DNA from: an uncultured Chthonomonadaceae bacterium
GTDB lineage: Bacteria; Armatimonadota; Chthonomonadetes; Chthonomonadales; Chthonomonadaceae
Reading direction: 5' to 3'
Assembly (NCBI GenBank): GCA_963835065.1
Contig: CAWIEK010000050.1
Location: 65,842 to 129,841, forward strand
DNA length: 64,000 nt
Shown: positions 322-57,027 of the stretch, one piece after another
How the letters are laid out: every line of letters begins with the position of its first letter
Numbering within the stretch: the first letter of the stretch is position 1
Translations under genes and position numbers: made by a program
Notes under the pieces: generated by a model
What the model was told of the DNA's origin: nothing
Seen by the model: only the letters and a program-made list of their open reading frames with translations
Databases searched by the model: none

Positions 322-465
322 CTTCACCACCAAGGCGCTAAGAACACCAAGAAGAACGCGAAAAAGGACGTTGTGAAATTGTAGGCGAGAACGCAAACGT
401 CTCCGGTTCGGTGCCTTTTTAGTTGCCTGTTTTCTCTTGGTGTTCTTGGCGTCTTGGTGGTGAAG
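322..465. repeat. Imperfect inverted repeat: two ~34-nt arms of degenerate short tandem units (322-356 and 432-465), spacer ~75 nt
   Basis: Left arm cttcaccaccaaggcgctaagaacaccaagaagaa. The reverse complement of the right arm is cttcaccaccaagacgccaagaacaccaagagaa. Confidence 0.7.
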
Positions 466-495
466 AGTTATCTATCAACCAAAACGGAGTTTTCC

Positions 496-1527
496 ATGAC
501 CATACAATGGGGCATTATCGGGTGCGGCGATGTGTGCGAGGTGAAAAGCGGGCCGGCGTTTCAGAATGTGGAGGGCAGCGCGCTTGTAGCCGTGATGCGG
601 CGGGACGGGGCCAAAGCGAAAGATTTCGCCGAACGGCACGGCGTCGGCTTCTGGTCGGACAAAGCGGAAGCTATTATTGCTAATCCACAGGTCAACGCCG
701 TGTATATCGCCACGCCGCCCGGTTCGCACCTGGAATACGCGCTCCAGTCCTGCGCCGCGGGAAAGCCCGCGTATATCGAAAAGCCGATGGCGCGGAGCGC
801 GGGGGAGTGCCGGGAAATGACTGCCGCCTTCGATAAAGCCGGCCTGCCGCTGTTTGTCGCCTATTATCGCCGCGCCCTGCCACGCTTTATCAAGGCAAAG
901 GAACTGATTGAAAGCGGGCGTATCGGGCAGGTGACGGGGGTTTCCTACCGATTTTCGTCGCCTATGCACCGGGACATGAACCCCGCGCATTTGCCCTGGC
1001 GCGTGGCTGCGGAAGAATCAGGAGGAGGCGTGTTTCTCGACCTGGGCTGCCATACGCTCGACATTCTGGGTTTCATGCTCGGCCCGCTGCAAGACGCGCG
1101 GGGCAATGCGGTCAATCTTGCCAGTCCGTACGCTGTGGAAGACAGCGTTGCCATGCAGTTTCGCACAACAAACGGCGCGTTGGGCGTGGCGCAGTGGAAT
1201 TTTGCCGGCCACGTCCGCGAAGATGTCATAGAAATATCCGGCACGGACGGGCGCCTATCGCTGTCTACATTCAGCAATGAGCCGGTGCAGGTGCAGTCGC
1301 AGTCCGGTGACGAGGCGTTAGACCTGCCCAACCCGCGCCACATACAGCAGCCCCTCATCCAAACCATCGTCAATCAACTCAACGGGCAAGGGGAATGTCC
1401 AAGCACGGGGCATACGGCAACCCGCACATCGGAAATAATAGACACGGTGCTGTCCGACTATTACAACGGACGCGACGACGCCTTCTGGGCGCGCCCGCAA
1501 ACCTGGAAACGGAACAGCCGTGAGTAA
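496..1527 (+). CDS. Gfo/Idh/MocA family oxidoreductase
   Basis: ATG 496 lies 6 nt after GGAG. N-terminus MTIQWGIIGCGDV is a Rossmann GxGxxG motif; EKPMA motif present. The track ORF 454..1527 begins at an upstream TTG. Confidence 0.85.
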   Translation: MTIQWGIIGCGDVCEVKSGPAFQNVEGSALVAVMRRDGAKAKDFAERHGVGFWSDKAEAIIANPQVNAVYIATPPGSHLEYALQSCAAGKPAYIEKPMARSAGECREMTAAFDKAGLPLFVAYYRRALPRFIKAKELIESGRIGQVTGVSYRFSSPMHRDMNPAHLPWRVAAEESGGGVFLDLGCHTLDILGFMLGPLQDARGNAVNLASPYAVEDSVAMQFRTTNGALGVAQWNFAGHVREDVIEISGTDGRLSLSTFSNEPVQVQSQSGDEALDLPNPRHIQQPLIQTIVNQLNGQGECPSTGHTATRTSEIIDTVLSDYYNGRDDAFWARPQTWKRNSRE

Positions 1528-1567
1528 CTTGTGCCCTTGTCTTGAACCATGATTTTCAGGATTAACG

Positions 1568-1625
1568 GATTACCATGATTGAGGAGGCGCATCATGGTAA
1601 TCTTCTAATTCTGTTTTTCGTTTAT
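1568..1625 (+). terminator. Rho-independent terminator after the oxidoreductase gene
   Basis: Perfect 12-bp stem gattaccatgat / atcatggtaatc (1568-1579 / 1591-1602) followed by a T-rich tract. Confidence 0.6.
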
Positions 1626-1650
1626 TTCGCATGTTTAGCGGTTCCCCTCT

Positions 1651-1716
1651 CATCTTCTTCTCTTCTTTATCTTCTTCTTTTCTCTGTGACCCCTCTGTGT
1701 CTCTGTGTCTCTGTGG
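1651..1716. repeat. Pyrimidine tract (TCTTCTT-like) followed by an 8-nt tandem repeat CTCTGTGN (1682-1716)
   Basis: Read directly: ctctgtgacccctctgtgtctctgtgtctctgtgg. Confidence 0.7.
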
Positions 1717-1752
1717 TGAACTTGCATCCGCGTTCATTATCCGGTAGGCAGG

Positions 1753-4191: not shown

Positions 4192-4428
4192 TTTCTCAGA
4201 GAGTTTCTTTGGAGATTAAGCGAACACCGGCAGGAAGGCCGCAGCCAATCAGCAGTGTCACTTCATAATGAATTATCGGCATGAGAAGCGCTTCCCTTCA
4301 TGCCTCCAACAGACTTAAACAAGGAAATATTTATTAAAATCGGAGGAAAGATGCTTGTGTCAAGAAAAAGCCATGAACGCATTGAGGAAAGACGTTCGTG
4401 CTATACTAATTCAGGAGGGAGTGTACCA

Positions 4429-5827
4429 ATGATTACTTCACTGCGAATAGCAAACTTCAAAGCATGGAAAGATACCGGCGAGTTTCGCCTTGCCCCGATT
4501 ACGGGCTTTTTCGGCACGAACAGTTCCGGCAAAACCAGTATTCTGCAGTTTCTTCTCATGCTAAAGCAAACTGTTGAGTCTCCTGACAGACAGGAAGTTC
4601 TTAACTTTGGAAACTATCAGGAACCGCTTGTTTCGTTAGGAAGCTTTAAAAATGTGGTCTTTCGGACAGCCAACGGTGATACAGCGCAACCTACTATTAC
4701 CGAGCAGCCACTCAAACGCGAATTGCTTGACATCGAATGGAGTTTGTCGTGGGAATTGGGCGGTACACAGGTACTGGATGAAAATACAGAAATTGATGCG
4801 CTTCGTTTTGGGGCTTCTGTTGGCGAGTTGAGGCAGAGTATCGGTATGGAAGTAGGCGCGAAAAAATTTGAGTACCAATACTGCAACCTTGAAATCCGGC
4901 AGCAGCGAAAGCGTAGGTATGCAATACATGGATGATTCCAAGTACCAGTTGATTGTCAATGATCAGCCCATCAGGGATAATCAGGCTAATAATACAAGAT
5001 TTCGTCGGCCCGTGAAATGCTATGGTTTCCCGCCGCAAGTCGCTGCTGACAACCAACAAATTTCATACCTTGATACTCTGGAACTGTACTTTACGCTATT
5101 GTTTAACGATATGTATTATCTGGGGCCATTGCGGGATGCGCCTCAGCGCGAGTACCGGCGGACGGGTACAACCGTTTCAGACGTAGGCAAGCGCGGGGAA
5201 AGAACAATAGACGCTTTGCTGGCTTCAGAAGGAACCGGCTCACAACATCGAACCGCGCGAACACTGGAAGGGCAAGTTGCTTACTGGCTGCGCCAACTGG
5301 GGCTGATTGAAGATTTTCGGGTAAAGCCAATCTCCCAATCAAGCGGCTTGTATGGTGTTGAAGTACGTAAGACAGCAGACTCTCCGTATGTCTTTCTCCC
5401 GGATGTAGGCTTCGGCGTCTCGCAGGTGCTGCCTGTAATCGCTTTGTGCTACTATGCGCCGATGGGTTCTATCCTCCTTCTCGAACAACCCGAACTGCAT
5501 TTGCATCCCGCCGTGCAATCGGGCCTTGCAGACATGTTGATTGCAGCCGCGAAAGAACGGCATCTGCAAATCATTCTGGAGAGTCACAGCGAACATTTGC
5601 TGGCGCGACTGCAGCGCCGCGTCGCTGAAGAAGCCATCCCGCGTGACGACGTACAACTCTACTTTTGTAAACGCGAGGCGGCTGCGGCACATTTGGAGCC
5701 ATTACAGATGAACAACTTCGGCTTCATTACGAACTGGCCTAAAAACTTTTTTGGCGATGAATTGGAGGAAAGGTCGGCAATGATGCTTGCCGCTCTTGCT
5801 CGCCGCGAAAAAGGAGAGGCCGAGTGA
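4429..5827 (+). CDS. ABC/OLD/RecF-like AAA ATPase (AAA_15/21-type, DUF3696-like C-terminus), interrupted by a +1 frame change between 4856 and 4935
   Basis: AGGAGG lies 10 nt before ATG 4429. Walker A FFGTNSSGKTS, YLGPLR motif, Walker B/D-loop ILLLEQPELHLHP, H-loop ILESHSEHLL. The N- and C-terminal halves lie in track ORFs 4300..4935 and 4868..5827. Confidence 0.75.
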
Positions 5828-6358: not shown

Positions 6359-7458
6359 TTACTTCGCTCGGAGGGCTTCGCGGGCATAGTCGGCAAGTTC
6401 ATGGGCGCGGTGGGCGGCGGTGTGATGGGCGAGTACGCGCTGGCGGGCGCGTTCCGCAATCGCAGCGCGTTCGGGTTCGGGCAGATTGCGGAGGAAGCGC
6501 AGGGTCTCTTCGGGGGAGCGCGAAACGAGTATTTCCAGGTTGGGAACGAAAAACGTGTCCAGCCCTTCCCAATAGTCGCTGAGGATGGGAACGCCGCAGG
6601 CGGCAGCCTCGAAAAGACGGACGCTTGGCGAGTACCCGGCGCGTATCATGTCGGCGCGGGTGATGTTGAGCGTAAACCGCTGCGAAGTGTAGAATGCCCG
6701 ATGTTCGGCAGGCGGCAGGTGTTCAATGCGCGCGACATTCGCCGGCCAGGCAATGGAAGCGGGATATTGCGGCCCGGCAACCACGAAACGGCCTTCCGAC
6801 CATGCGCGCGCCGGTTCAAGGAGCAATTTTTCGAGCGGCGGCTGACGGTCATCGCTGTACGTTCCCATGTAGCCCAAATCATAATCATAAGCGCTGCGGT
6901 TCGCGTCCGGGAAGTACAAATCGGGGTCAACCGAGCAATACAACGGGCGGGCGGCAGGAGAACCGTACTGCTGTTCCAATCGCGTCAGTGTTGGCCCGCC
7001 CGAAAACGACAGATAGACATTGTAGCGGGGAATCAGTTGCGGGCGTAAGGTACTCGTAATCGCCCCGTTCCAATTTGGACAGCGTAACGGGCGTATCAAT
7101 GTCGTAAAAAGCCGTCGCTGTATGCGCCGTTTGCGTGACCCATTCGCCCACCAAAACGCCTTCGGGCACATACGAGCCGACAATGACAAAATCCGCGTCT
7201 GCGGACGGCGTCGGTAAAGCGGTCGCGCAGTTCTTCGAGGGAGCCATACAGTTCCGTACGTCCGAACGGAGGCGCGGGCATATCGCGATTGGAAGCGTAC
7301 CAGGGCACATCCCGCTCCAAAAACAACACGTCATGCCCCTGCGCGCACAGTTCGCGCGCAAGCCCGCGATACGTGGTCGCGTGTCCATTCCCCCACGAAC
7401 TGGTAATGGACAGGCCAAGAATGACGATATTCAGGCGGTCAGGGGTTGCCAACGTCAT
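6359..7458 (-). pseudogene. CgeB-like glycosyltransferase (DUF3880 / Glyco_trans_1_2 type), two frame changes
   Basis: The sensible peptide runs through three frames: 7458-~7200 (MTLATPDRLNIVILGLSITSSWGNGHATTYRGL), ~7200-7040 (ADADFVIVGSYVPEG...) and 7040-6359 (...VRLFEAAACGVPILSDYWEGL...). It is a paralog of the next gene. Confidence 0.7.
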
Positions 7459-8646
7459 GCGCTCCCTCCTGCCTCAAATGCGGCATTTCCTTCTGAACTC
7501 GCTTCAGCATTTGCTTCGGCGCCTGTTTCCAAATCGGGTTTTCGGCTGGATTGTCCGGGTGCAGACATGAAATGCGCGTCAAGCAAACTTTCCAACTGAA
7601 CGACGCGCTGCGCGTAGGTATGCTGCGCCAGCGCGCGCCGATACGCCGCCTGCCCGATTTCCTGCGCGCGCTCCGGCGTTAAGTCTGCCAGATGCCGCGC
7701 CACTTCCTCGCCCCCCTGCGCCACCAGTATCTCTTTTCCCGGCTCGAAAAATTCTTCGATGCCCTGCCAGTAATCCGTAATCAGACACGCGCCCGCGCCC
7801 GCCGCCTCAAAAACGCGCGTGGCGGGCGAAAACCCGTAACGCGCCATGCTGTCGCGGCTGATGTTCAGCACGGCGCGGGGCGTACAGTTGAAAGAATTGT
7901 GGTCGGGCGTATAAACGTGTCCGGCATAGCGGACATTCGGCGGCATGGCCTTGTCGCCCCACCCACTGCCGCCAAGCAGAAACTGTTTATCGGGCAGCAA
8001 ATGCGCGGCGTGAAGGAAGAACTGCTCCACGCGGGCTTCCCTGTCCGGCAGGCGATTGCCCAAAAATCCCAAATCGGCGGCAAAGCGCGGGTCGGGCGCA
8101 ACGGGATGGTGCGTATCCGGGTCAAGCGCGTTATAAATGGGAACGCACTGCCGCGCGCCCAATTCTTCATAAGCGCGAACAACCGGATTTCCGCCGCCAT
8201 ACGTCAATATCAAATCATAGCGGGGAATCAAAGCGCGAAACGCATCGGATGGATTGGAATGAACCCGCTCCAATGTGGCGGGCGCGTCCACATCCCAAAA
8301 GGCGACGATGGACTCCCGCCTTCTTCACGTCCAGCACCCGCGCTTCCAGCAGTTCATCGAACACGCCCACGCCGCTCGCTTTGACAATCAAATCGGCATC
8401 GCGCGCCTGCTCCAACGCCCTATTTACGCCGTCTTCTCCTTCGCCCGCGTACACGACAACTCGCGCCCAATCCGGGTCTTCCATATCGCGGTGCTGCTGC
8501 CGCTCGTAAGCGTCGGGTTCGTAAAACGTGACGCTATGCCCGCGCCCGTGCAGCGCGCGTATAATGCCCCGATAGTAGGTTGCGGCTCCATTCCAGTACG
8601 CCGACACCAGGCTGGAACCGAAAAAAGCGATGTTCAAACCGTTCAC
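7455..8646 (-). pseudogene. CgeB-like glycosyltransferase, one frame change near 8290-8310
   Basis: N-terminus MNGLNIAFFGSSLVSAYWNGAATYYRGI (ORF 8215..8646) continues as ...FWDVDAPATLERV...VFEAAGAGACLITDYWQGI in ORF 7455..8291. The stop overlaps the next start by 4 nt. Confidence 0.7.
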
Positions 8647-8680
8647 AGGCTTCCTCTTAAACGCGCGAATACGATCTCAC

Positions 8681-8804
8681 CACAGAGGCACAGAGACACA
8701 GAGGGGTCACAGAGGGGGATAGAACAATGAGAGATAGAGCTATCTTATGTGTGTTGGCTTATGGTTATTCGCGTTTATTCGCGTTTATTGGCGTTCATTC
8801 GCGG
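8681..8804. repeat. 8-nt tandem repeat CACAGAGN (8681-8718) and 10-nt tandem repeat TTATTCGCGT x4 (8765-8804) in an operon-internal spacer
   Basis: Read directly: cacagaggcacagagacacagaggggtcacagag and ttattcgcgtttattcgcgtttattggcgttcattcgcgg. Confidence 0.75.
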
Positions 8805-8821
8805 CTATCCTCAAGTTTTGT

Positions 8822-11461
8822 TCAGGCGATTTCCTCGTATATATTGAGTAACTCGTCTACTCTGTGGGCGCAGGTGTGGCGGGACAGGATGGTTTGCAGG
8901 CCATGCCGCGCCAGGGCGTCTGCTTTGTCCGGGTTTTCAAGCAGGGTTTGCAGGTGGCGCTGCATTTCCTGTCCATTCTGCGCGACAAGATAATCCTCGC
9001 CCGGCGTGAATAGATGCTCCGCATCGTTCCAGGGCGAGCAAACGAGAGGAATCCCACACGCCAATGCCTCGAACACCCGAATTGTCGGGATACCCGGCAG
9101 GAAACGCACATACGGCCCGCGCGGAATATGGACCGTGACGCGATATTGGGCGAACACGTCCGGGGCTTCGTGGTTGGGCAATCCGCCCCCGTATTCAATG
9201 CCCGCTTCCGCCAGCGCGCGAAACGCATGTTCCGGGTAGCGCACCCCGTAAACCCGCGCCCGCACTCCCAACGCCTTCACCGGCTCCAAGAGAAACTCAT
9301 GCAGTTCCGCTGTCCGCTCCTCATCGCCCCAATTGCCGATCCAGACCAAATCCCCACTCAGGGAGCAGGGAACAGGGAACAGGGAACAGGAGGCTATTGG
9401 CTGTGCTGAACTTGCTTGAGAAAAAGAAGTATTTGTATTCTGTTCCCTGTTCCCTGTTCCCTGCTCCCTTGCCGGCTTGAACACCCGCGCGTCCGCCGCC
9501 TCGTGCCAGGTCCAGGCGCGGCGCGTCCAGCCTTCCGTCAGATACAAGTCGCGGATGATGCTGCCGAAGGCGAGAACGCCGTCGTAGCCGCTCAGGTCGT
9601 AGGAGGCCATGCCCGCGCGATCCGTAACCGAGCGGTGGTGCGTGTCGTGGAACAGCAGGCGGTAGTGCGGGTTTGCCTGCCGGTGCTGTCCCAGGCGTTT
9701 CACAAGCGCGTGGTCGTTCCATTCATGCACGATTACCAGGCTTGCGTTTGCCAATACTTTATCAAGACGCAACAGGGCAGGCTCGTAGAAGATACTGTCT
9801 AAAGTCGGATAGGCGCGGTAAAAATCTTCCACGCCACTCGCGCCGCGATCCGCCAGCAGGTTTTGCAGGCTCCAGTTCTGGCACGGCTCATAAACAACGA
9901 CATCCAGGCCGCGCGCCTGCAATTCCGTCACAATGCCGCGCAGGAAATGGGCGTTGCCGTGATTCCAATCCGAGAGCAGGGAATGGCAGAAGATAACGAT
10001 TTGTCCGGGAACACTCACGGCAGCGATTCCTCCGGTTCGGGCGGAAAGGACAGGGCCGCGCTGTAGTGGGGAACCGCGGGCATGGGTGGTCAGCAGTTGC
10101 CCGTAAATATCCAGATAGCCGTCCGTCATGGCATCCAGCGTGTACAACTGTGCCCGTTCCCACGCCCGATTCGCCATTTCCTGCCGCAAATCAGGCTCGG
10201 CAATCAATTTCGACAAAGCGCGCCGCAAAGCGTCGGCATCATTGGGCGCAACGAACAGCGCTGCTTCGCCCCACACTTCCCGCAGACTGCCAATATCTCC
10301 CAATACCAGCGCGCAACCCGACAGCGCGGCTTCCAGCGCCGACAACCCGAACGGCTCATACCGCGCCGGAAGCGCATAAATCGCCGCCCGCGCATACCAG
10401 CCTGATAAGGCTTCGGGCGACAGCGCGCCGAGAAAGGATAAGGATGAAGGACCAGTTGATAGTTGATAGTTGATAGTTGATAGGGCATCCGTTGGTTCTG
10501 TCTTCTGTCTTCTGTCTTCTGTCTTCTCTCCTCCTGTTCCCTGTTCCCTGTTCCCTGTTCCCTTCTCCGCCGGATGCTGCGGACTGCCGGCGACATAGAC
10601 GGGCCAGGTGAGATGGGGGGCGGCTTGTTCCAGCAGGACGATGTTTTTGGCTTCATCCCAGGCGCGGCCTGCCGTGAGGATAAACGGTTCCTTTTCCGCG
10701 CTGTAGTATAGGGAATGTTGCCTGCCGTTCGGGATTACTTTCGCCTCGCAGAAAGACGGAGAAAGCAGAAAGGAGGAGTCCTCCTGCCCTTTGCCTTTTG
10801 CCTTTTGCCTTTTGCCTTCCTCAAGGCTGTAATGGTAGTCAAGCGCGCGCAGCATGGCGGAGGTGGGCGCGATTACGCAGTCGGCGGAGTGCAGGCCGAT
10901 GGTAATATGTTCGCGGTATTGGTTCCATTCCGGGGGCGCGGGTTCGCCCTTCACGGCCTGCCACCAGGAGAGAACGTCGGAGTGGGCGACAACAACCACA
11001 GGCGCGGCCCAGGGCAGAGCGGCATGGGCATAGCCGTTGAGGTGAACGATGTCCGGCGCATACTGTTCTTCCAATGCCAGCAGCCATTCGCCTGCCCGCG
11101 CCACATCCGCCCAACACTCGTGCATCCATTCCAGTTTGGCATTGCTGGAACACAGCGTCAGGCCGGGAATTTGCCGCGCCTGCATGGATTGCTGCGGGGA
11201 AGGCAAATCGCCCATTGTCGCCAGAACAACCTCAACGTCATGGGCGGACAAACCGCGCGCCAGGTCAAGCGCATACGTCCACACGCCGCCCACGCAGTCC
11301 GCCGTCATCAGGATACGACGAGGGTGGATATGCGCCCGTTCGCTGACCAGGCTGTGCGGCTGAACGCGGCGTTGGAGCGCGCGCCCGGTGCGGCCTGTGG
11401 GTGTGCCGTTGGCTCCGGCTTCGGGCAGATGCTGCCGGGTTCGGGAGAAAGAGTGTCTCAC
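8822..11461 (-). CDS. Bifunctional glycosyltransferase: N-terminal GT4/GT1-like domain fused to a CgeB-like domain
   Basis: 879-aa intact ORF. GTG start overlaps the upstream stop (GTGA). N-terminus RILMTADCVGGVWTYALDLA. The C-terminal half (VIFCHSLLSDWNHGNAHFLRG ... VFEALACGIPLVCSPWNDAE) parallels the two CgeB-like genes downstream. Confidence 0.85.
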   Translation of the reverse strand: MRHSFSRTRQHLPEAGANGTPTGRTGRALQRRVQPHSLVSERAHIHPRRILMTADCVGGVWTYALDLARGLSAHDVEVVLATMGDLPSPQQSMQARQIPGLTLCSSNAKLEWMHECWADVARAGEWLLALEEQYAPDIVHLNGYAHAALPWAAPVVVVAHSDVLSWWQAVKGEPAPPEWNQYREHITIGLHSADCVIAPTSAMLRALDYHYSLEEGKRQKAKGKGQEDSSFLLSPSFCEAKVIPNGRQHSLYYSAEKEPFILTAGRAWDEAKNIVLLEQAAPHLTWPVYVAGSPQHPAEKGTGNREQGTGGEKTEDRRQKTEPTDALSTINYQLSTGPSSLSFLGALSPEALSGWYARAAIYALPARYEPFGLSALEAALSGCALVLGDIGSLREVWGEAALFVAPNDADALRRALSKLIAEPDLRQEMANRAWERAQLYTLDAMTDGYLDIYGQLLTTHARGSPLQRGPVLSARTGGIAAVSVPGQIVIFCHSLLSDWNHGNAHFLRGIVTELQARGLDVVVYEPCQNWSLQNLLADRGASGVEDFYRAYPTLDSIFYEPALLRLDKVLANASLVIVHEWNDHALVKRLGQHRQANPHYRLLFHDTHHRSVTDRAGMASYDLSGYDGVLAFGSIIRDLYLTEGWTRRAWTWHEAADARVFKPAREQGTGNREQNTNTSFSQASSAQPIASCSLFPVPCSLSGDLVWIGNWGDEERTAELHEFLLEPVKALGVRARVYGVRYPEHAFRALAEAGIEYGGGLPNHEAPDVFAQYRVTVHIPRGPYVRFLPGIPTIRVFEALACGIPLVCSPWNDAEHLFTPGEDYLVAQNGQEMQRHLQTLLENPDKADALARHGLQTILSRHTCAHRVDELLNIYEEIA
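9361..9468. repeat. Heptamer hairpin cassette inside the GT CDS: (GGGAACA)n 9361-9390, spacer, (TGTTCCC)n 9440-9468
   Basis: 108 nt (36 codons), translated as [38 protein letters not shown]. Confidence 0.85.
10454..10562. repeat. Three adjacent heptamer arrays inside the GT CDS: (ATAGTTG)n 10454-10483, (TTCTGTC)n 10496-10529, (TGTTCCC)n 10534-10562
   Basis: Read directly. Translated on the minus strand as [36 protein letters not shown]. Confidence 0.85.
10788..10820. repeat. (TTTGCCT)x4 heptamer array inside the GT CDS
   Basis: cctttgccttttgccttttgccttttgccttcc; translated as KRQKAKGKGQ. Confidence 0.8.
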
Positions 11462-25292: not shown

Positions 25293-25329
25293 CCCAACAC
25301 CCGAACACCTGAACACCCAACACCGACCC
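25293..25329. repeat. Unpaired SAACACC-type heptamer array
   Basis: cccaacacccgaacacctgaacacccaacaccgaccc, directly after the YfhO-like gene. Confidence 0.75.
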
Positions 25330-33903: not shown

Positions 33904-34735
33904 ATGAACGACTCGAATTTACAAGAAGTTTCCGTTTCGTCCTCAACCCTCCCTGCCGACAACGCTATCATTGATAATGTGGATAAAGCTGTTCCTGTGG
34001 ATACTGCGGATGATGCCTCACCCCTTCCGTCCGTTCAGGTTTCCCTGCTGCAGGGCGCGCAAGCGTTTGGATTGGTTCTGGACAGCGCAGCCCTGGCCCG
34101 TTTTGCGCGCTTTGCTTTGCTTCTGGAAGAGGGAAACCGCCAACTCAACCTGACGCGCATACGCCCGGAAGATGTAGTCACGCTGCATTTTCTGGATTCG
34201 CTGGCGCTGGCAGTGGCGCATCGGCCCGCATCGGGAGCGCGCGTACTCGATGTCGGCACGGGCGCGGGGTTTCCCGGAGTGCCGCTCGCCCTCGCGTTTC
34301 CTGATGTCACCGTCACTCTGATGGACAGTACGCGCAAGCGTCTCCTATGGCTCGACAGCGCGCTTTCCGAATTAGCGATTTTGAACGCCCATACGCTTCA
34401 CGCCCGCGCCGAAGAACTGGCGCGCGACCTGCAGCGCCGATGAGCGTTATGATCTTGTTGTCGCCCGCGCCGTCGCGCCTCTGGCAACGCTTGCCGGCTG
34501 GCTGTTGCCGTTCGCGCGTCCGGGCGGGCTTGCCGTCGCGTACAAAAGCCAGGACATTGCCGCCGAACTTGAGGCCGCGCTGCCCGTTCTGCAAGCGCAT
34601 TCCGCGACCCTGGAGCAAATCGTGGAAGTGCCCTTACCCGGCACGGACATTGCGCGTAAACTGGTGCTGATGCGCAAACACCGCGCCGTTCCCCTGCCGC
34701 AAAGACGTAACAGGGGTCAATTTAGCCGCAAATAG
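33904..34735 (+). pseudogene. rsmG: 16S rRNA (guanine527-N7)-methyltransferase RsmG, one frame change near 34430-34445
   Basis: NLTRIR...HFLDSL...VLDVGTGAGFPGVPLA in ORF 33904..34443, continuing as YDLVVARAVAPLATLAGWLLPFARPGG... in ORF frame 34505..34735. Confidence 0.75.
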
Positions 34736-35309: not shown

Positions 35310-35313
35310 GTAA

Positions 35314-35413
35314 GGTTTTAGGGTTTTAGGGTTCTATGGTTTTAGGGGCAGAGGATCGCATGATTTACCTTAATTCCTGCAACCCTAGAACCATAGAACC
35401 CTAAAACCCTAAC
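35314..35413. repeat. Heptamer hairpin: (GGTTTTA/TAGGGTT)n 35314-35348 / (AACCCTA)n 35381-35413; likely terminator
   Basis: Starts 5 nt after the stop at 35309; the arms are reverse complements (one variant unit, ctatgg/ccatag, conserved in both arms). Confidence 0.8.
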
Positions 35414-35444: not shown

Positions 35445-36398
35445 ATGCGCCGTTCCATGCTTAACGCTCAACGCTCAACGCCCAACACCCAGTACCGAAC
35501 ACTCAACCCAGGGAACAGGGAACAGGGAACAGGGAACAGAAGAAACTCAATCCACAATCCACAATCGGCAATCGGCAATCGTAAATTCCTCAACCGGGCG
35601 TTCACCCTGATCGAACTGCTCGTCGTGATCGCCATTATCGCCATCCTCGCCGCTATTCTGTTCCCGGTCTTCGCGCAGGCGCGCGAAAAAGCGCGTTCCG
35701 CTTCCTGTCTGTCCAACCTCAAGCAGCAGGGAACCGCAACGGTCATGTATGTGCAGGATTATGACGAGACATTTCCCATTGCGCTGTACTTCGGCAACAA
35801 TGGAGCCACGCCCTGCACCATCCTGTCGTACCACGAAATCATTCCCTACCAGAAGAACGCGGACATGGAGCGGTGTCCGTCCGATGGAACGCCGCTGGAC
35901 GTGACCAAAGCGCTGGCGAATTTAGGCTTGCCGCCGGTTTGCCCCTTAACGCCCGCGCTGCCCAAAGTCGGGTATCAGCCCAACTACGGCGTGTTCGTGT
36001 TTACGGCGGTGGTTCCCGCTGCCTATCAGAAAGCACCTGTTGGACTGCCGTCACTGGACTATCCCGCCGATACCGCGCTGTTTTCGGATGCGACCGTGAC
36101 GCAGGGCGGCAACGCGAACTTCGCGCCTCCCCTCACCGCGCCTATTCAAGCCCGCCATAGTACGCTTGTCAACGCCATCTATGCCGACAGCCACGCCAAA
36201 GTGCTGCATACCAAACTCTACACCAATGCGGGCGGTACGCAAATCACTGGCACGGCGCTGGACGGGGGCGTGTTCAACGGTGTTGTCGTTGCCGATGCGG
36301 GGCCGTACGCCACGCCCGCCAACCCATTCCCCTACACCCTGCGCGGCATCCCCAAGAAGGACGCCAATGGCAACTGGACGCTGATGAATACGCCGTAA
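35445..36398 (+). CDS. Prepilin-type N-terminal cleavage/methylation domain protein (DUF1559 / H-X9-D[GS]-like pseudopilin) with an unusually long leader
   Basis: AAGGAGAG RBS before ATG 35445. Motifs [32 protein letters not shown] and [13 protein letters not shown]. About 49 aa precede the FTLIELL motif. Confidence 0.8.
35464..35581. repeat. Three heptamer arrays within the pseudopilin leader-coding region: CTCAACG/CCAACAC-type 35464-35509, (GGGAACA)n 35510-35539, (CAATCCA/CAATCGG)n 35548-35581
   Basis: Read directly; translated as [40 protein letters not shown]. Confidence 0.85.
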
Positions 36399-36403: not shown

Positions 36404-36439
36404 AAGGATGAAGGATGAAGGATGAGGGATGAAGCATCC
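36404..36439. repeat. (GGATGAA)n heptamer array just after the pseudopilin stop
   Basis: aaggatgaaggatgaaggatgagggatgaagcatcc. Confidence 0.75.
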
Positions 36440-40990: not shown

Positions 40991-41110
40991 AGTTGAAGTT
41001 GATAGTTGATAGTTGATAGTTGATCATGCGCGGCTTCTCTTTGTCTCAGCATGACAGTAGAGACAGGAGTACAGCGCCTATCAACTATCAACTATCAACT
41101 ATCAACTTCT
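40991..41110. repeat. Heptamer hairpin: (AGTTGAT)n 40991-41024 / (CTATCAA)n 41079-41110, spacer ~54 nt, between two minus-strand genes
   Basis: The arms are reverse complements. The right arm overlaps the last codons of the upstream gene (..EEVDS). Confidence 0.85.
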
Positions 41111-44897: not shown

Positions 44898-45010
44898 GGT
44901 GTTCAGGTGTTCAGGTGTTCGGGTATTCTGGTGATAGCCTTGACGCCATGCAGTAAGCTTTTGTACTTTTGTATTCCCTGAACACCCAAATACCCGAACA
45001 CCTGAATACC
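44898..45010. repeat. Heptamer hairpin: (GGTGTTC)n 44898-44928 / (GAACACC-type)n 44976-45010
   Basis: The arms are reverse complements; located between the desulfurase start and the PCD stop. Confidence 0.8.
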
Positions 45011-45015
45011 TAGCC

Positions 45016-45320: not shown

Positions 45321-45433
45321 GGTAGACGGTAGACAGTAGACGGTAGAAATGCTGTTCATTTAAAGCTTTGTGCGACAGCAACAGCTTGCAAGCAGGGCTG
45401 TCTACCGTCTACCGTCTACTGTCTACCGTCTAC
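45321..45433. repeat. Heptamer hairpin: (GGTAGAC)n 45321-45349 / (GTCTACC)n 45400-45433
   Basis: The arms are reverse complements. The right arm supplies the last codons (KKVDGRQ) of the upstream minus-strand ORF. Confidence 0.85.
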
Positions 45434-50538: not shown

Positions 50539-50916
50539 TTGACCACACCAACCACCTTTGGGGAGTACATCAAGGAGCTGCGTCTCGAACAGCGTGTCTC
50601 GCTGCGCGCGTTTGCCGAGTCTATCGGCTCCGATCCCGGCAATTACAGCAAAATTGAACGGGGAAAGATGGCTCCTCCTGCCGATGCTGCGAAGCTGGAC
50701 ATCTATCGCAAAGCGTTGTGCCTTGATGCCAATGATTTGCGGTGGCGTGAAGCGGTGCGTCTTGCTTCCATTCATCGCGGCGAAGTGCCGCCTCGCATAC
50801 TTAATGATGAACAGTTGGTAGGCAAACTGCCCGCGCTGTTCCGCACACTGGAAGGAGATGCCGTTGATGAAACCTTGCTCGATGAGCTAATCGCCACTAT
50901 ACGAAGGGAGTATTAG
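50539..50916 (+). CDS. XRE-family helix-turn-helix transcriptional regulator
   Basis: TTG 50539 lies 7 nt after GAGGAG. Peptide FGEYIKELRLEQRVSLRAFAESIGSDPGNYSKIERGK (HTH_3-like). Confidence 0.8.
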   Translation: MTTPTTFGEYIKELRLEQRVSLRAFAESIGSDPGNYSKIERGKMAPPADAAKLDIYRKALCLDANDLRWREAVRLASIHRGEVPPRILNDEQLVGKLPALFRTLEGDAVDETLLDELIATIRREY

Positions 50917-50921
50917 ATTGC

Positions 50922-51515
50922 GTGAACATACCATTTCTTCCAGATGAAATGCTTGAAGAACAGGCTGAAGCCTTTCTTGCCAAGTATCTGCCTCAGAGGG
51001 TTATTCCCATTCCAATTGAGGAGATACTGGAAACGGATTTCCGCGTCGGAGTTGTGCCTATTCCGGGTTTCAGCGACCGTTTCGGCGTTGTTGGTTACCT
51101 CAGTACGGATCAGCAGGATTTGATGATTGATGAAAAAGTCATGACGCGGTATCCTGCCCGGTATCGTTTTACCATCGCGCATGAATTGGCGCACCTGCTT
51201 CTGCACGGCGACTACATACGGGAAAATTGCCCGGCTAACATTGCCGACTGGAAACGCTGGCTGATCGCAAGGGACGCCAAACTGTACACGCGCATGGAAA
51301 CGCAAGCCAATCGCATGGCCGGTATGCTGCTGGTTCCACGCGCTGAATTAGCGGAAGCATGGGAGCGGGCGCAACAGTACGCCGAAGAGCGTGGCATTGA
51401 TACTACCGAGTTGGATCAGTTTGGGGTCGCGCATCTGGCGGAATGGATTGCCCGTGAATTTGAGGTGTCCGGCAAAGTCGTGGAAATCGCGCTTGAACGC
51501 TGCAAACTGGTGTAG
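50922..51515 (+). CDS. ImmA/IrrE family metallopeptidase (DUF955)
   Basis: HEXXH motif in FTIAHELAHLLLHGDY with downstream E..AN..A segment (METQANRMAGMLLVPR), typical of ImmA/IrrE. Confidence 0.85.
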   Translation: MNIPFLPDEMLEEQAEAFLAKYLPQRVIPIPIEEILETDFRVGVVPIPGFSDRFGVVGYLSTDQQDLMIDEKVMTRYPARYRFTIAHELAHLLLHGDYIRENCPANIADWKRWLIARDAKLYTRMETQANRMAGMLLVPRAELAEAWERAQQYAEERGIDTTELDQFGVAHLAEWIAREFEVSGKVVEIALERCKLV

Positions 51516-52257: not shown

Positions 52258-52261
52258 TGGC

Positions 52262-52648: not shown

Positions 52649-52802
52649 ATAAAGAGGTCTCCTGATATGCACATGGGCAGCCCACGTGATCCATACAGAT
52701 ACACAGTAAATACTACACTCGCGCACTCTGCACAAACTATCGCAGATCGTTTGAGCAAGTTTCCAGAAATTGATGTAGTATCCTTCAATAAAAACATTTG
52801 TA

Positions 52803-53441
52803 CTAAAAGTAGAACTCTACGTCGCGGCCCAACGTCTGCTGCATCTGGCGCAGGGTTTGCGCGGCATTGGCCTGCGCCTGCTGACAGATGCCGCTTTTCT
52901 CTGCCGCTTCCCGAAACTGCTGCGAGGCTTTTTCCTGCGCTTTGGGCACGATGTTGTCGTCGTGCCACACCAGACCCGGATCGCTCTGCTCCACGCGCAC
53001 CCGGACGTTCGGCGGATAAATCGTAACGGGCGGCAAATGGACGCGCCAGACGGTTTTGCCGTCCACGTTCTTGGTCGCGGTCACATCTTTGGCGGACAGG
53101 GTTGACAGGTCTACGCCCGCTTCCACCGTGCCTTCGGCCACGACAAGCGCCTGATTGCGGGTCGCCCAATGCACCACGTTCGACACGCCCGGCATGTTCC
53201 CGATCATGCCTTCCGGTTCCACCTGCGTTTCCTGCCGCACGATGTCTTTCATCTTGAACGACGCGGAATGAAGCTGTCCGATTTTCTGCATGGCGAGAAC
53301 AACCGGCCCCATTTCGGGCGGCAGGTCACGCCGATGCGCCTGCCCGATGTTCCACAGCCAGGTTCCCGCCAGCCACACGCCCACAAACGCGCCGATGATG
53401 CGCCACGCCCATCTGCGCGGCCTGCCTGTCGTTCTTGCCAT
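52803..53441 (-). CDS. Membrane-anchored hypothetical protein (DUF4230-like)
   Basis: N-terminal anchor WAWRIIGAFVGVWLAGTWLW. Overall pattern (..EAGVDLS..) resembles DUF4230; family call is tentative. Confidence 0.55.
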   Translation of the reverse strand: MARTTGRPRRWAWRIIGAFVGVWLAGTWLWNIGQAHRRDLPPEMGPVVLAMQKIGQLHSASFKMKDIVRQETQVEPEGMIGNMPGVSNVVHWATRNQALVVAEGTVEAGVDLSTLSAKDVTATKNVDGKTVWRVHLPPVTIYPPNVRVRVEQSDPGLVWHDDNIVPKAQEKASQQFREAAEKSGICQQAQANAAQTLRQMQQTLGRDVEFYF

Positions 53442-53464
53442 GTCAAAAAACCTCTTTTCAGAAT

Positions 53465-53720
53465 GTCGGTGTTAGGTATTCGGTATTCGGTGTTCGGGCA
53501 CTTGTCAGTGTCAGCCGGTTCCGCGCCGAAAATTGGTTCGGAAGCGATCACAAGTCGTTGTGAGCGGTATGTCTGTACCAGACAGAGATACCTGATTTAT
53601 TCTTATTGTATCTTATATAGGACGACTTCGCAGAGAGTTTCATTCTTTTCTTTTGCGCTTCGCGGCTATACCTCCCTGTAACCATCGAACCATCAAAATC
53701 CCGAACACCGAATACCGACA
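53465..53720. repeat. Heptamer inverted pair (GGTGTTA/GGTATTC-type 53465-53498; CGAACAC/CGAATAC-type 53700-53720) with ~200-nt spacer
   Basis: The arms are partial reverse complements; located between two minus-strand genes. Confidence 0.7.
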
Positions 53721-53721
53721 T

Positions 53722-55824
53722 TTACCTAACGGTTACGCCAAGCTGGTCAAATAGAAAACACAATTCGTCGGTCAGGTCTTCGATCACTTTGCCCATCGGA
53801 CGAGTTCCCATGTGGCCGGATTTCGTGTCGTAGTGCAGCAGTATGGGACGGTCCGAACCCGTCTGCGCCTGCAGCAGCGCGGCCATTTTGCGGGCATGGA
53901 GCGGCGCGACGCGGGTATCCGCATCCCCCGTCACGAACATTACGGCAGGGTATTTCGCGCCGGGCGTGACCCGATGGTAGGGCGAGTATGCGTACAGGGT
54001 TTGGAACTGTTCCGCGTCTTCGGAGGAGCCGTATTCCGGCACCCAGTAGCGGGCCACGAGAAACTGATGGTAGCGCACCATATCGAGCAGAGGAACCGCG
54101 CAAATCACCGCCCGGAACAGGTCGGGACGTTGCGTGAGCGCCGCGCCCACGAGCAAGCCGCCGTTGCTGCCGCCCATGATGGCGAGTTTATCCGGGTTGG
54201 TGATGTTCTGCGCCGTCAGCCACTCGGCAGCGGCCAGAAAGTCGTCGAACGTGTTCTGCTTGTTGGCAAGCATCCCCGCCCGGTGCCACTCCTCGCCGTA
54301 TTCGCCGCCGCCGCGCAGGTTCGCCACCGCGTACACCCCGCCCTGCTCCGCCCACAACGTCGCAAACGAGGAGAAATAGGGCGTCATGCTGGCCGTAAAG
54401 CCGCCATACCCGTACAGCAGCGTGGGACGCGCGCCGTCAAGCGCAAGCCCTTTTTGATGCAGCAGGAACATCGGTACGCGCGTCCCGTCTTTGGACGTGT
54501 AAAACACCTGCTTCACTTCAAAGCGGGCCGGGTCAATGGGCACGTTCATACGCGCCCATTCGCTTGTCGCGCCCGTTTCCATATCATAGCGCGTAACCAC
54601 AGCCGGAACCGCAAACGACGTGAAAGTATAAAACGTTTCCGGGCTGTCCCAACGCCCATACAGGCCGCTGGCCGAGCCGAGCGTGGGCAATTCAATGTCG
54701 CGCAGGTGCGTTCCCGCCGCGTCGAAAACCCGGACGCGGGAACTCACGTCCTGCAAATAGTTCAGCACGATATGCCCGCCCGCGAGTGAAAACCCTTCCA
54801 TGACGGCATCAGGCGATGTGGGAACCAGTTCGCGCAATTGTTCGGCAGGCAGGGGCGTATCTGTCGGGCGCGTTAAATCCAACTGCGCCAGGTCAACCGT
54901 CAGCAGGCGCTCGTTGGGCGCGTTCCAGTTGGTTTGCAGGTACAAATTGTCGCCGCCAATGTCGCCGTAAAACCGCGCTTCAATAGTGGTAATCAAGGGC
55001 ACAATGGGGTTTTCGCCGCTTCCGTCTTTATTCAGCCGTTGAATGTACAGATCGGTTTTGGTGGCGGCGGAACCATAAAAGACGTTGAACAGCAGATAGC
55101 GTCCGTCTTCGGAAATCTGGACGGTGATGTACTTGCCCTTGTCGTACCGCGCGCCAAATATTTCCACATTCCCGGCCATGTCCGCGCCGAGCGTATGTCG
55201 GTAAGCGCGAGGGCCGTTGTCGGTTTCCAGCGAATAGTATAGCGTCTGCTTGTCCTGTGTCAGCGTGGTACTCATAAAGCGGGCGCGGGGCAGTACGTCG
55301 GCCAAATCCGTCTTATCCGCCACATTGAGAAACCGGATTTCAACCTCGTCCTCGCCGCCCTGCCGAATTCCATACACGAGCAGCGAACCGTCGTCGGAAA
55401 TATCCTGCATGGAAACCGTCACTGATTGATCCGCGCTCAGGGTATGGGGGTCAATCAGAACCTCGTCTTCGCCGCCCAATCCCACGCGGCGATACAAGAC
55501 GGGCAATTCCTCATCGGCGCGGCGCTTGCTGAAAAAGTAAGCGTTGTGCCGAACAGTGGGGATGCCGATGGAATCAATACGCGCCAACTGGTTCAACCGT
55601 TGCTCAATCAAATCTCTTCCCGGTGTTTGGGCAAGCAGATGGCGCGTATAAGCGTCCTGTTCCGCAATCCAGGCGCGGGTTTCCGGGCTGTCCTGATCTT
55701 CCAGCCACCGGTACGGGTCCATAACGTCAACGTCGTGCAGCGTTTCGACAACATTGTCCTGCCGCGCGGGAAGGGGGCGCGTTGGAATTACATTCCCCGT
55801 CTGTGAACCTGTATCTGCGGTCAT
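53722..55824 (-). CDS. Prolyl oligopeptidase (S9A family)
   Basis: [19 protein letters not shown]-terminal motif, catalytic GGSNGGLL, C-terminal D/H region. Confidence 0.9.
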
Positions 55825-55944
55825 ATTTCAGCATCCTTTGGGTTAATTTTCAACTTTTTGAAGCGGGCTTTACCTTTCATTGGCAAACCCGATAACAGAT
55901 TTACGAAGTTCAGAGCCTATTCATTTCAATTTTATCAACACGCG

Positions 55945-55979
55945 CAAAAATAAAGGCAGGCTCCCCGTAAAAGCCTGCC
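55945..55979 (-). terminator. Minus-strand terminator after the PHP gene
   Basis: Stem ggcaggct / agcctgcc preceded on the plus strand by an A-rich run (T-run on the minus strand). Confidence 0.55.
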
Positions 55980-56004
55980 ACTGGTTCTTCGCTTAATCAG
56001 ATAA

Positions 56005-56967
56005 TCAGAAAGAGGAGGTAACCGCAAGATTAAACCTAACTTGCTTTGCCTGCCGATGCTGCCGAATAGCGGTCAGCAGATGATAAGGCGCGGGGCTGCC
56101 TTCGGGAGCGTTGAGGTCGGGACGTTCCACTGCGCCAAGCCTTACTTTGGGCTTGACGGACGGGCCGTGAAAATCCGACCCGCCCGAAGTGAGCAGGCCA
56201 TGCCGCGCGGCCAGATCAAGGTAACGCGCCGTGTCTTCTGAGGAGTGCAGGTTGTAACGCGCTTCGATGCCGTCCAAGCCCATGTCGCGCAACTGCAAAA
56301 TGTAGGCTTCCGTGGCTTCGCAGGAGCCGCGCTTGCAGTTGTTGGGATGTGCGAGAATCGCCACTCCGCCCGCCGCGTGGATGAGATATATGGCCTCTTT
56401 CGCCGTGACTTTTTCTTTCGGAACGTTGCCCTTCGCGCTTTCCGCCAGATACACGTCAAACGCTTCCTGCACACTGCCGACCAGCCCTTTTTAAATCAGC
56501 ACACGGGCAAAATGCGGACGCGCAATGATATCGCCGCCCGCAATGGCTTCTACTTCTTCCAGCGTAATGTGAATGTTCCGGCTTTTCAGTTCGTCAAGGC
56601 TGTTCAGTTTGTCCACCATGCGAGCGTTGCGATTGACTCGATTTTCCTGAATGTCATGCAGGCGGGAAAGCAAAACGGGATTGTTTGGATCAATGCCCAA
56701 TCCTAAAATATGGCACTGCCCCCGCTTTTCGCCCGGAACCGCCTCGATTTCCGCGCTCAACTCGATTCCCGCAATCACTTCCACGCCCAAGCGCCGCCCC
56801 GCTTCCAGGGCTTCGGCAACGCCGTCCGTTGTATCGTGATCCGTAACGGCAATCGCCGTCAATCCCGCTTCTTTGGCAAGCGCGACAAGCTGCGTCGGGG
56901 ATTGGTCGCCATCTGAAGCGGTCGTATGGGCGTGAAGATCAACACAGCGCAATTCGGGTTCCGGCAT
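56005..56967 (-). pseudogene. PHP-domain phosphoesterase (TrpH/YciV-like) interrupted by an in-frame TAA
   Basis: DLHAHTTASDG...VTDHDT (ORF 56491..56967) and ILAHP...GGSDFHG (ORF 56005..56472) are in the same frame, separated only by TAA at 56491-56493 (..FARVLI*KGLVGSVQEAF..). Confidence 0.8.
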
Positions 56968-56978
56968 GACAGGCTCCT

Positions 56979-57027
56979 GTTAGGCATTAGGCATTAGGCA
57001 TTAGATATTAGATATTAGATATTAGGG
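56979..57027. repeat. Two adjacent heptamer arrays (TAGGCAT)x3 + (TAGATAT)x3
   Basis: gttaggcattaggcattaggcattagatattagatattagatattaggg. Confidence 0.85.

Follow-up and report, generated by a model that had tools for sequence, protein, structure and literature searches.

Hairpin-forming cassettes of tandem heptamers between and within genes of a Chthonomonadaceae bacterium

In many bacteria, no long simple repeats are more over-represented than tandem arrays of heptamers. How such arrays arise, and why they persist where they do, is the question raised by a 64,000-nt stretch of contig CAWIEK010000050.1 from an uncultured, soil-type Chthonomonadaceae bacterium (Armatimonadota; positions 65,842 to 129,841, referred to below as the window). 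Short tandem repeats, mostly heptamers, are dispersed through this DNA at many loci, and about half of them are set as inverted pairs that could fold into long hairpins; arrays and pairs alike are called cassettes here. A sequence-only reading of the window had described them as a dispersed modular family, a description that the present analysis supports. We interpret the cassettes as simple-sequence elements, akin to the short tandemly repeated repetitive (STRR) sequences of cyanobacteria, that would be produced by slippage and template switching and would survive where they are tolerated, an interpretation that we hold to be evenly poised.

Arrays were located by Tandem Repeats Finder (TRF) and by an independent strict scan of the window, and these recovered essentially every array at the positions listed by the sequence-only reading. 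Besides those in Table 1, the recovered coordinates include 9359-9390/9440-9469, 10454-10483, 10496-10527, 10533-10563, 27809-27829/27874-27897, 35314-35347/35381-35411, 35509-35539, 40991-41024/41078-41107, 44898-44933/44977-45011, 45321-45347/45400-45433, and 53466-53497/53697-53718. The strict scan returned 16 period-7 arrays (at least about 3 copies), compared with an expectation of 0.0 from 40 Markov-1 simulations of the window, and all other periods between 4 and 12 contributed 1 array altogether. The typical array consists of about 4.4 copies of a heptamer (occasionally of an 8- to 10-mer) and has a median length of 31 nt, with TRF copy numbers concentrated at 4.0-5.0. At least 12 distinct arm units are present within the 64 kb, and recurrence of one unit at unlinked loci was confirmed for GGGAACA (6 arrays at 4 loci) and AGTTGAT (2 loci). 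Several groupings had to be revised, however: the array at 23 kb consists of ACCCTCA rather than AACCCTA, the period is 8 nt instead of 7 at 25.3, 35.3, and 44.9 kb, and the statement that most arrays are paired was too strong. In a tally of 42 arrays from the lineage, GGGAACA accounted for 9, and AGTTGAT, GGGTGTT, AAGGATG (also found at 7650-7692 of the related locus L002), GGTTTTAG, and CTCTGTGN likewise recurred within or between genomes. The units are thus drawn from a lineage-wide vocabulary, exemplified by GGGAACA, GGGTGTT, AGTTGAT, GGAGAAA, and AAGGATG, and array density among the relatives ranges from 0 to 3 per 10 kb.

The concentration of copy numbers near four is reminiscent of the heptamer arrays of Xanthomonas, in which a four-unit bias was ascribed to G-quadruplex formation (Rehm et al. 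2015, PMC4692102). The cassettes might likewise be DNA-level signals, either as G-quadruplexes or i-motifs, or as arrays bound by a protein that reads one heptamer per subunit, four units being the functional size. The preferred number equals the four G-tracts of a quadruplex, many units begin with GGG (GGGAACA, GGGTGTT, GGGAAAA, GGGGTAA), and GGGAATC was shown to form a quadruplex in vitro (PMC4692102). However, among the 35 period-7 arrays used for length statistics, the 18 whose units lack a G3 or C3 run are as long (median 33.5 nt) as the 17 whose units contain one (31 nt). The four-unit preference is independent of quadruplex potential, and since half of the units in the lineage have no G-tract, the rationale proposed for Xanthomonas does not carry over. 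In paired cassettes, moreover, the duplex hairpin competes with quadruplex formation, and the diversity of units argues against a single sequence-specific protein. A DNA-level signal is considered quite unlikely.

An inverted-repeat search revealed nine paired loci in the window (Table 1). Three pairs are 100% complementary over 26-30 nt, variant units included, and the predicted RNA folds of the paired loci have energies between -47 and -85 kcal/mol and z-scores between -5.5 and -10.8 relative to dinucleotide shuffles. Both the proposed capacity to form long stem-loops and the mirroring of variant units between arms were therefore borne out. The mirrored variants would argue either for copying of one arm from the other or for upkeep of the pairing. 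Loops measure only 5-14 nt in the most compact cassettes, those of L205, L203, and L168. Pair records were drawn from the window and its relatives as well as from other phyla and from metagenome contigs; the G- or purine-rich arm lies 5′ in 28 of the 30, the only exceptions being L109 and the window pair at 317. Because a palindrome reads alike on both strands, this order represents a real structural rule and not a choice of strand. One consequence may be that the C-rich arm pairs once it is transcribed, from either strand, and never offers a loading site for Rho.

The intergenic cassettes begin 2-42 nt from stop codons or overlap them, and they take up nearly the whole gap between the stop codon and the next ribosome-binding site. 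Adjacency to stop codons, which the sequence-only reading had proposed, was confirmed at 27807, 35309, 36398, 41095, and 45016, but it does not hold as a general rule, since five of the 17 clusters lie in frame inside open reading frames (ORFs). Nine of the intergenic cassettes are flanked by co-directional genes, two by convergent genes, and one by divergent genes, roughly matching the intergenic proportions of the window as estimated, rather than counted, from the gene map. The cassettes do not have the form of intrinsic (Rho-independent) terminators: the stems are very stable, but no U-tract follows eight of the nine hairpins, and the single T-run (at 45433) is on the + strand, opposite to the flanking - strand genes. 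Hairpins located within essential-looking ORFs also speak against a canonical terminator, a role that was accordingly given little weight. A strand test for RNA-level selection, based on G-U pairs and folding energies, found no consistent preference for the sense strand.

The genes that hold the five in-frame clusters encode two glycosyltransferases, one CgeB-like and one GT4, a YfhO-like membrane protein, and a prepilin, where the cluster lies in the leader. The ORF at 8822-11461 (-), in which Pfam identifies GT4 and CgeB-like Glyco_trans_1_2 domains, remains open across three clusters, and the YfhO-like ORF at 22537-25254 (+) remains open across the cluster at 23115-23258. Alignment of the CgeB-like protein with homologues located a 38-residue insert exactly at the linker between its two halves, which measures 13-15 residues in 60 of the 67 homologues listed, from many phyla. 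In the AlphaFold model of this protein (mean predicted local distance difference test score, pLDDT, 82), the only segment below 50 comprises residues 184-216, which is the peptide encoded by the cassette, and the insert is predicted to be a disordered segment. The prepilin-like gene offers no other start codon between the arrays at 35459-35581 and the FTLIELL motif.

Two further in-frame arrangements were observed outside the window. At 15355-15417 of L208, four copies of AGGGAACA are followed directly by (CCGACAC)x4, forming a multi-unit mosaic within the ORF of a DUF6785 gene. At 6411-6554 of L003, a metagenome-assembled genome (MAG) of a Coleofasciculaceae cyanobacterium, the CgeB-like homologue has the same interdomain linker enlarged by an insert of 48 residues. 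The hairpin that encodes this insert is a different one (-54.5 kcal/mol), in which the C-rich arm comes first, and it would seem to have reached the tolerant site independently.

Comparison with relatives, all represented by metagenome assemblies, revealed how individual sites have changed. By identity of the YfhO-like protein these are L203 (87%), L204 (71%), L205, L206, and L207 (about 60%), and L208 (51%), and by identity of the CgeB-like protein L002 (82%) and L001 (75%). In the YfhO-like gene, an in-frame hairpin was found at the same codon position in seven of seven genomes (the window and L203-L208; 51-87% identity). These cassettes measure 90-162 nt, each length is a multiple of 3, and the purine-rich arm is 5′ throughout. 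Five unit families that differ by 1-3 substitutions are used at this site: GGGAACA in the window and L205, GGAGAAA in L203 and L204 (where the cassette is decaying, with a fold of -18.8 kcal/mol), GGGAAAA in L206, CAAGATA/CAAGGCA in L207, and AGAAAAC in L208. Between its GGGAACA arrays the window cassette holds a GGAGAA remnant, which corresponds to the unit of the closest relative and suggests that units may be overlaid rather than only mutated. The YfhO-like gene of Chthonomonas calidirosea has no repeat at the cassette site.

At the CgeB site, the window has GGGAACA arms, L002 has GGGGTAA/GGGATAA arms that are not mirrored, and L001 has no cassette and retains the native 9-codon linker. One unit of the L002 cassette reads GGGGCAA, a T-to-C change that gives CAA where GGGGTAA would place an in-frame TAA, and the cassette is therefore under selection to stay translatable. 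Because in-frame cassettes all have lengths that are multiples of 3, and because this variant unit avoids an in-frame stop, the cassettes within genes are translated, and introns were rejected on the same two grounds. The finding that all five of the YfhO-site units are stop-free in all six frames is uninformative, as the same is true of 50-62% of random heptamers.

Between the AMP-binding and enolase-superfamily genes, the GGGTGTT hairpin of the window is replaced in L203 by one of CGGTGTT/CGGTATT units, with every unit changed in both arms and a spacer that cannot be aligned to that of the window, whereas in L204 the site is empty, with 19 nt from stop to start. The cassette sits precisely between TAAA and the GGAGG ribosome-binding site, and comparison of the filled sites (window and L203) with the empty one revealed no target-site duplication. 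In the intergenic gap between the epimerase and alcohol dehydrogenase (ADH) genes, arrays are present in L203 and L002 and absent from the window. The intergenic remnant at 8681-8803 is orthologous to L002 11195-11360; both share the 10-mer and 8-mer arrays, and the inverted partner of the 10-mer, retained in L002, has been lost from the window, so that some single arrays are remnants of pairs.

These comparisons also bear on whether the cassettes are artefacts of long-read assembly, as might be suspected from the several split genes in the window, a feature typical of unpolished assemblies. At least seven assemblies, independent of one another and made from different samples, have cassettes at orthologous sites, which answers the doubt as to whether they would survive in other assemblies; the reading frames stay open, and the lengths are multiples of 3 in all seven YfhO orthologues. 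Conservation across assemblies effectively refutes the artefact explanation, to which next to no probability is assigned.

The cassettes are not confined to the window or to its lineage, as had been asked at the outset. Paired heptamer arrays with other units were found in a Chthoniobacteraceae MAG (L061), in Thermoanaerobaculia MAGs (L068/L069), and in metagenome contigs (L091, L104, L164, and L168). Arrays of GGGAACA with at least 3.4 copies occur, mostly unpaired, in more than 120 metagenome contigs (L083-L202) with a GC content of 33-75%; no control unit was included in this search, so GGGAACA is not shown to be special. Among these contigs, 37 also bear heptamer arrays of other units, and array-rich genomes of mixed vocabulary seem to be common in peat, soil, and freshwater metagenomes. 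As a cross-phylum control, contigs with CgeB homologues among the matches listed (at most 64% identity, many phyla) yielded 15 period-7 arrays in 1.3 Mb, concentrated in 5 loci.

The paired geometry raises the possibility of transposition. REPINs are hairpin-forming doublets of repetitive extragenic palindromic (REP) sequences, with a cognate REP-associated tyrosine transposase (RAYT) gene (PMC3116915). [quoted passage not shown] Like such elements, they form dispersed doublets with a spacer, about 100-150 nt in size and often placed just after genes, the units of their arms reappear in related genomes and at loci that are not linked, and the absence of target-site duplications is as expected of HUH transposases. 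The in-frame palindromic inserts also bring to mind Rickettsia palindromic elements, which are tolerated in frame in surface regions of proteins. In all of these elements, however, sequence is conserved over the whole element, whereas in the cassettes only the short unit recurs. All spacers differ: by blastn, none has a second match in the window or among the approximately 2 Mb of fetched loci, so that no cassette has a second copy there. At least 12 unrelated arm units would each require recognition, a scan of approximately 50 window ORFs revealed neither a transposase nor a RAYT domain, and single arrays and multi-unit mosaics are a poor fit to a fixed element. MITE copies were rejected because the spacers are unique, whole-element similarity between copies is lacking, and the empty site bears no sign of target duplication, and REP/REPIN identity because no REP sequence is shared, the arms being tandem heptamers of at least 12 units with only the doublet geometry alike. 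Transposition is thus a very unlikely origin.

Pairing that outlasts a complete change of unit at orthologous sites has a covariation-like appearance, and it would be predicted if the cassettes were functional RNA hairpins whose arms are kept complementary by selection. Between genes, they would act as processing, stabilizing, or attenuating stem-loops, as RNase III sites, as blocks to 3′ exonucleases like those proposed for REP sequences and bacterial interspersed mosaic elements (BIMEs), or as non-canonical terminators; within genes, they would pause ribosomes at domain boundaries. Consistent with such roles, cassettes lie directly after stop codons and ahead of the next ribosome-binding site, both in-ORF hairpins are located at domain or segment boundaries, the G-first order would avoid Rho loading by leaving no C-rich arm unpaired, and most of the comparable repeats in Xanthomonas are transcribed (PMC4692102). 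However, about half of the arrays are unpaired, the missing U-tracts and the indifference of folding energies to the sense strand do not favor an RNA-level function, and the same sites are empty in the close relatives L204 and L001 with no visible consequence. A search of Rfam returned 0 matches in the window at the gathering threshold, and compensatory change can be mimicked by template switching. A functional RNA is regarded as possible but doubtful.

The interpretation that we favor, slippage combined with template switching, would proceed as follows. Slippage during replication would create the arrays and homogenize them. Intrastrand template switching, by snap-back copying or quasi-palindrome correction, would make the inverted arm and maintain its complementarity, and switches between arrays would add neighboring arrays of different units. 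Purifying selection would then remove insertions that break a gene or promoter, leaving those that fell between a stop codon and the next ribosome-binding site, in variable loops, in linkers that are interdomain or disordered, or in a leader peptide that is cleaved off. The cassettes would be largely self-renewing DNA, neutral or mildly selfish, and the RNA hairpins a tolerated by-product, perhaps occasionally exploited by the cell. Template-switch mutations that create and maintain hairpins have reportedly been described by Ripley, by Lovett, and by Löytynoja and colleagues. Such switching predicts perfect inverted copies, short loops, and simultaneous changes in two arms, all of which are seen in the cassettes, and snap-back copying accounts for the mirrored variants, for the 5-14-nt loops of the compact forms, and for unit changes that hit all copies in both arms.

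Several lines of evidence support this interpretation. The arrays are specific to period 7 and equal in length with or without a G3 run; spacers are unique, and no duplication marks the filled site relative to the empty one; units turn over at fixed YfhO, AMP-binding/enolase, and CgeB sites. The sites themselves are tolerant, as illustrated by the disordered CgeB insert in a linker that measures 13-15 residues in most homologues, and translation constrains the sequence, as illustrated by the CAA codon of L002. The absence of a G-U strand preference and of U-tracts after eight of nine hairpins, and the occurrence of the same architecture in unrelated phyla (L061, L068/L069, and metagenome loci), are also in agreement with it. 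Perfect inverted copies and multi-base changes mirrored in both arms are present, as would be expected of template switching, but selection for pairing predicts the same pattern.

Other observations weigh against slippage and template switching. With pure slippage, copy numbers should be spread broadly or geometrically and should not peak near four; a small shared vocabulary, in which GGGAACA supplies nine of 42 arrays, would not be expected of random slippage; and the rule that the G- or purine-rich arm lies 5′ does not follow from the model itself. Template switching is known from unique sequence, and neither the heptamer period nor arrays of four units nor the G-first order would be expected from it. 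Selection for the structure could just as well explain why one in-ORF site has kept a hairpin across 51-87% protein identity.

Some of these features would be explained by a dedicated repeat-writing activity, such as a reverse transcriptase, a PrimPol, or a repair polymerase, that adds about 30 nt of G-rich heptamers to 3′ ends where DNA is broken or a fork is stalled. If both ends were extended, or if snap-back took place, subsequent joining would generate G-first palindromes with filler spacers. The G-rich strand does run 5′ to 3′ towards the center from both sides in 28 of 30 records, array length is narrow, native linker sequence has been replaced by cassettes and not merely added to, orthologous cassettes have unrelated spacers, and one architecture is found across phyla. 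No candidate enzyme has been identified, however, many units would demand many templates, snap-back by an ordinary polymerase accounts equally well for mirrored variants, and the arms of L002 are not mirrored. We assign a repeat writer little probability. A broader proposal combines these elements: a dedicated and widespread process other than slippage would write four-heptamer modules of about 30 nt at stalled forks or breaks, and snap-back copying of these would yield palindromes whose G-rich strand invariably points to the center; some of the hairpins would be kept at domain boundaries in genes for long periods for a function such as translation pausing, mRNA processing, or the shielding of C-rich RNA from Rho. 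This is unlikely, but, if true, heptamer cassettes would be a class of structural elements general across phyla and written into genomes by a machinery of their own.

Comparison with known systems clarifies what is new. Cyanobacterial STRR sequences, said to have been described by Mazel and colleagues in 1990, are reportedly dispersed tandem heptamers with several unit types per genome in heterocystous cyanobacteria; their units include CCCCAGT, TTGGTCA, and CAACAGT. The likeness drawn by the sequence-only reading was apt, as both are tandem heptamers dispersed at many loci, but neither the STRR1-3 unit sequences nor the cyanobacterial host is matched by the window. Unlike the window cassettes, STRR sequences are not defined by a paired hairpin architecture, and Nostoc has only few inverted pairs (Rehm et al. 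2015, PMC4692102). The closest precedent was reported in the same study, which described GGGAATC arrays in Xanthomonas and GGGGAYT arrays in Nostoc. With 70-75 convergent inverted pairs per Xanthomonas genome and a preference for four units, the repeats were found within 50 bp of stop codons, mostly between co-directional genes, and the site was conserved between species while length and sequence varied (PMC4692102). The paired modular architecture, which had seemed unusual, was thus already known. Heptamers, about four units, convergent G-arm-first pairs, placement near stop codons, and conserved sites are common to that class and the window. The class differs in having one dominant unit per genome, compared with at least 12 in 64 kb, and its intragenic copies are rare and were not analysed as translated, whereas the window has five in-frame clusters with orthologous conservation. 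The Rehm-type unit GGGNATC does not occur in the window, and the host phylum, Armatimonadota, is different.

Two other systems share some of these properties. Direct repeats of TAACTGA occur in marine Beggiatoaceae, cyanobacteria, and Bacteroidetes (MacGregor 2015, PMC4679880). Like the window arrays, these are mostly intergenic heptamers with 2-6 copies and a scattered phylogenetic distribution, but they consist of a single unit, are oriented upstream of start codons, and include one inverted pair among 170 sets. In Borg elements, tandem repeats in ORFs add intrinsically disordered protein regions (PMC9879509). They resemble the in-frame cassettes in being fast-evolving, in-ORF, and expressed as disordered peptide segments; however, Borg units are multiples of 3 nt and form no inverted pairs, whereas the 7-nt units of the window pass through all three frames in turn, and a multiple of 3 is reached only by the cassette as a whole. 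No literature on Armatimonadetes or Chthonomonas with such repeats was found. New here are the phylum, the multi-unit vocabulary within one genome, the G-tract-independent preference for four units, the translated and orthologously conserved in-frame hairpins, and the strong G-rich-arm-first rule across phyla.

Table 1. Repeat clusters of the window, with predicted folding energies and gene context (positions in the window; z relative to dinucleotide shuffles)
Position (strand)	Type and units	Pairing and fold	Gene context
317-470	Inverted pair, imperfect 8-9-nt arrays	Arms 317-352/435-470, 92% complementary; 82-nt spacer; C-rich arm first, the sole such cassette in the window; -76.6 kcal/mol, z -9.2	Between two + strand genes
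1693-1715	Single array, CTCTGTGT x2.9; TCT-rich tract before it, 1653-1683		Convergent intergenic region
8681-8803	Cassette remnant; CACAGAGG x3-4 (8681-8717), 10-mer TTATTCGCGT x3.9 (8765-8803)		Intergenic, downstream of CgeB-like stop (8822)
9360-9469 (-)	Perfect hairpin, (GGGAACA)x4.3	30-nt arms 9360-9389/9440-9469, 100% complementary; 50-nt spacer; -72.5 kcal/mol, z -9.5	In frame in CgeB-like glycosyltransferase, linker between its two domains
10454-10563 (-)	Mosaic of three adjoining arrays, AGTTGAT x4.3, TTCTGTC x4.6, CCTGTTC x4.4	Unpaired	In frame in GT4 glycosyltransferase, at variable loop
10750-10818 (-)	69-nt (23-codon) insertion relative to L001 and L002; contains TGCCTTT x4.9 (10785-10818)		In frame
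23107-23268 (+)	Composite cassette, 162 nt; GGGAACA arrays 23115-23193, ACCCTCA x4.3 23196-23225	Inverted arm CTGTTCC x4.4, 23228-23258	In frame in YfhO-like gene
25296-25324	Imperfect 8-nt array, AACACCCG x3.8		42 nt past YfhO-like stop codon
27809-27897	Hairpin, GGGTGTT	Arms 27809-27833/27873-27897, 92% complementary	Fills gap from AMP-binding gene stop (27807) to ribosome-binding site of enolase-superfamily gene
35311-35412	Hairpin, 8-nt units GGTTTTAG/GGTTCTAT	Mirrored variants; -58.2 kcal/mol, z -8.1	2 nt after stop 35309
35459-35581 (+)	Three to four adjoining arrays, GCTCAAC x4, CAGGGAA x4.4, CAATCCA/CAATCGG		In frame in leader peptide of prepilin-like gene 35445-36398 (N_methyl, DUF1559)
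36404-36434	Single array, AAGGATG x4.4		5 nt after stop 36398
40995-41109	Perfect hairpin, AGTTGAT	30-nt arms 40995-41024/41080-41109, 100% complementary; 55-nt spacer; -66.9 kcal/mol, z -10.8	Between two - strand genes; right arm overlaps stop 41095
44898-45011	Hairpin, 8-nt GGTGTTCA-type units	79-90% complementary	Between stop 45016 and start 44884 of two - strand genes
45321-45433	Hairpin, GGTAGAC	26-nt arms 45322-45347/45408-45433, 100% complementary including AGTAGAC variant; -61.8 kcal/mol, z -9.6	Between two - strand ORFs
53466-53718	Distant pair, TCGGTAT/TCGGTGT	Arms about 200 nt apart	Right arm ends 4 nt from prolyl oligopeptidase stop (53722)
56980-57026	Mosaic single array, TTAGGCA x3 then TTAGATA x3		Divergent intergenic region

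Some of the units resemble telomere repeats. The GGTTTTAG / TTTTAGGG unit at 35314-35347 is identical to the Chlamydomonas-type telomere repeat, and GGGTGTT, GGGAACA, and several further units are telomere-like G-rich heptamers. The likeness is probably a coincidence, but it nonetheless fits the idea of a G-rich strand being synthesized towards the center. A separate inverted pair of 56-nt arms at 30046-30101/30154-30209 is 98% complementary, with a predicted fold of -135 kcal/mol, and each arm contains its own palindrome, CCTTCTCCCTGCAAGGGAGAAGG. Single arms of this element are present in L204 (17069-17114) and L205 (15392-15443); it resembles dispersed elements of the REP kind and seems to have no relation to the heptamer arrays. 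Among other repeat and RNA features of the window, CRISPR repeats were rejected, as there is no regular repeat-spacer array, as were integron attC sites, there being no integrase in the window; no tRNA genes were found in it.

The window has a GC content of 54-60% and carries chromosomal housekeeping and envelope functions, including an RpoD-like sigma factor, catalase, PspA, GidB, and glycosyltransferases. Among named organisms, Chthonomonadaceae/Chthonomonadales (Armatimonadota) supply the closest homologues of the YfhO-like protein, that of Chthonomonas calidirosea being 49% identical. Three tandem CgeB-like (Glyco_trans_1_2) paralogues at 6359-10015 adjoin GT4, epimerase, and zinc-ADH genes in a cluster that is conserved in L001 and L002. 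Homologues of the CgeB-like gene with 55-65% identity were found in very many phyla, among the matches listed, which suggests that the gene may frequently have been transferred horizontally. Genes that appear split or truncated occur at 4300-5827, 7455-8646, 26265-27807, 33904-34443, 62192-62641, and about 10081; AAA_15/AAA_21, Glyco_trans_1_2, and AMP-binding are each divided over two ORFs, GidB and Ldh_2 are partial, and a 1-nt indel relative to L002 (about 10081) fuses the GT4 and CgeB-like genes into a single 879-residue ORF. The closest relative, L203, exhibits the same kind of fragmentation, which suggests noise of unpolished long-read assembly rather than real pseudogenes. The gene at 4300-5827 encodes an AAA_15/AAA_21 ATPase with DUF3696, the equivalent place in L203 being occupied by AAA_21 and RloB, and the gene at 50539-51515 encodes a Peptidase_M78 (ImmA/IrrE-like) protein and is preceded by a small ORF; both are possible defense or toxin-antitoxin-like genes.

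This lineage provides clean comparative material for the study of heptamer arrays, as the same gene sites are filled, empty, or refilled with other units among genomes that have diverged by 13-50%, and the translated cassettes let constraints at the DNA level and at the protein level be read directly. The preference for four units without G-quadruplexes, the nearly invariable 5′ position of the G-rich arm across several phyla, and the in-ORF hairpin that persists through unit replacement narrow the explanations that can be considered. Functional cassettes would offer a simple modular means by which strong RNA hairpins could be set within genes or between them. Cassettes without a function would instead constitute a good natural system in which template switching, and the tolerance of proteins for inserted disordered segments, may be observed.

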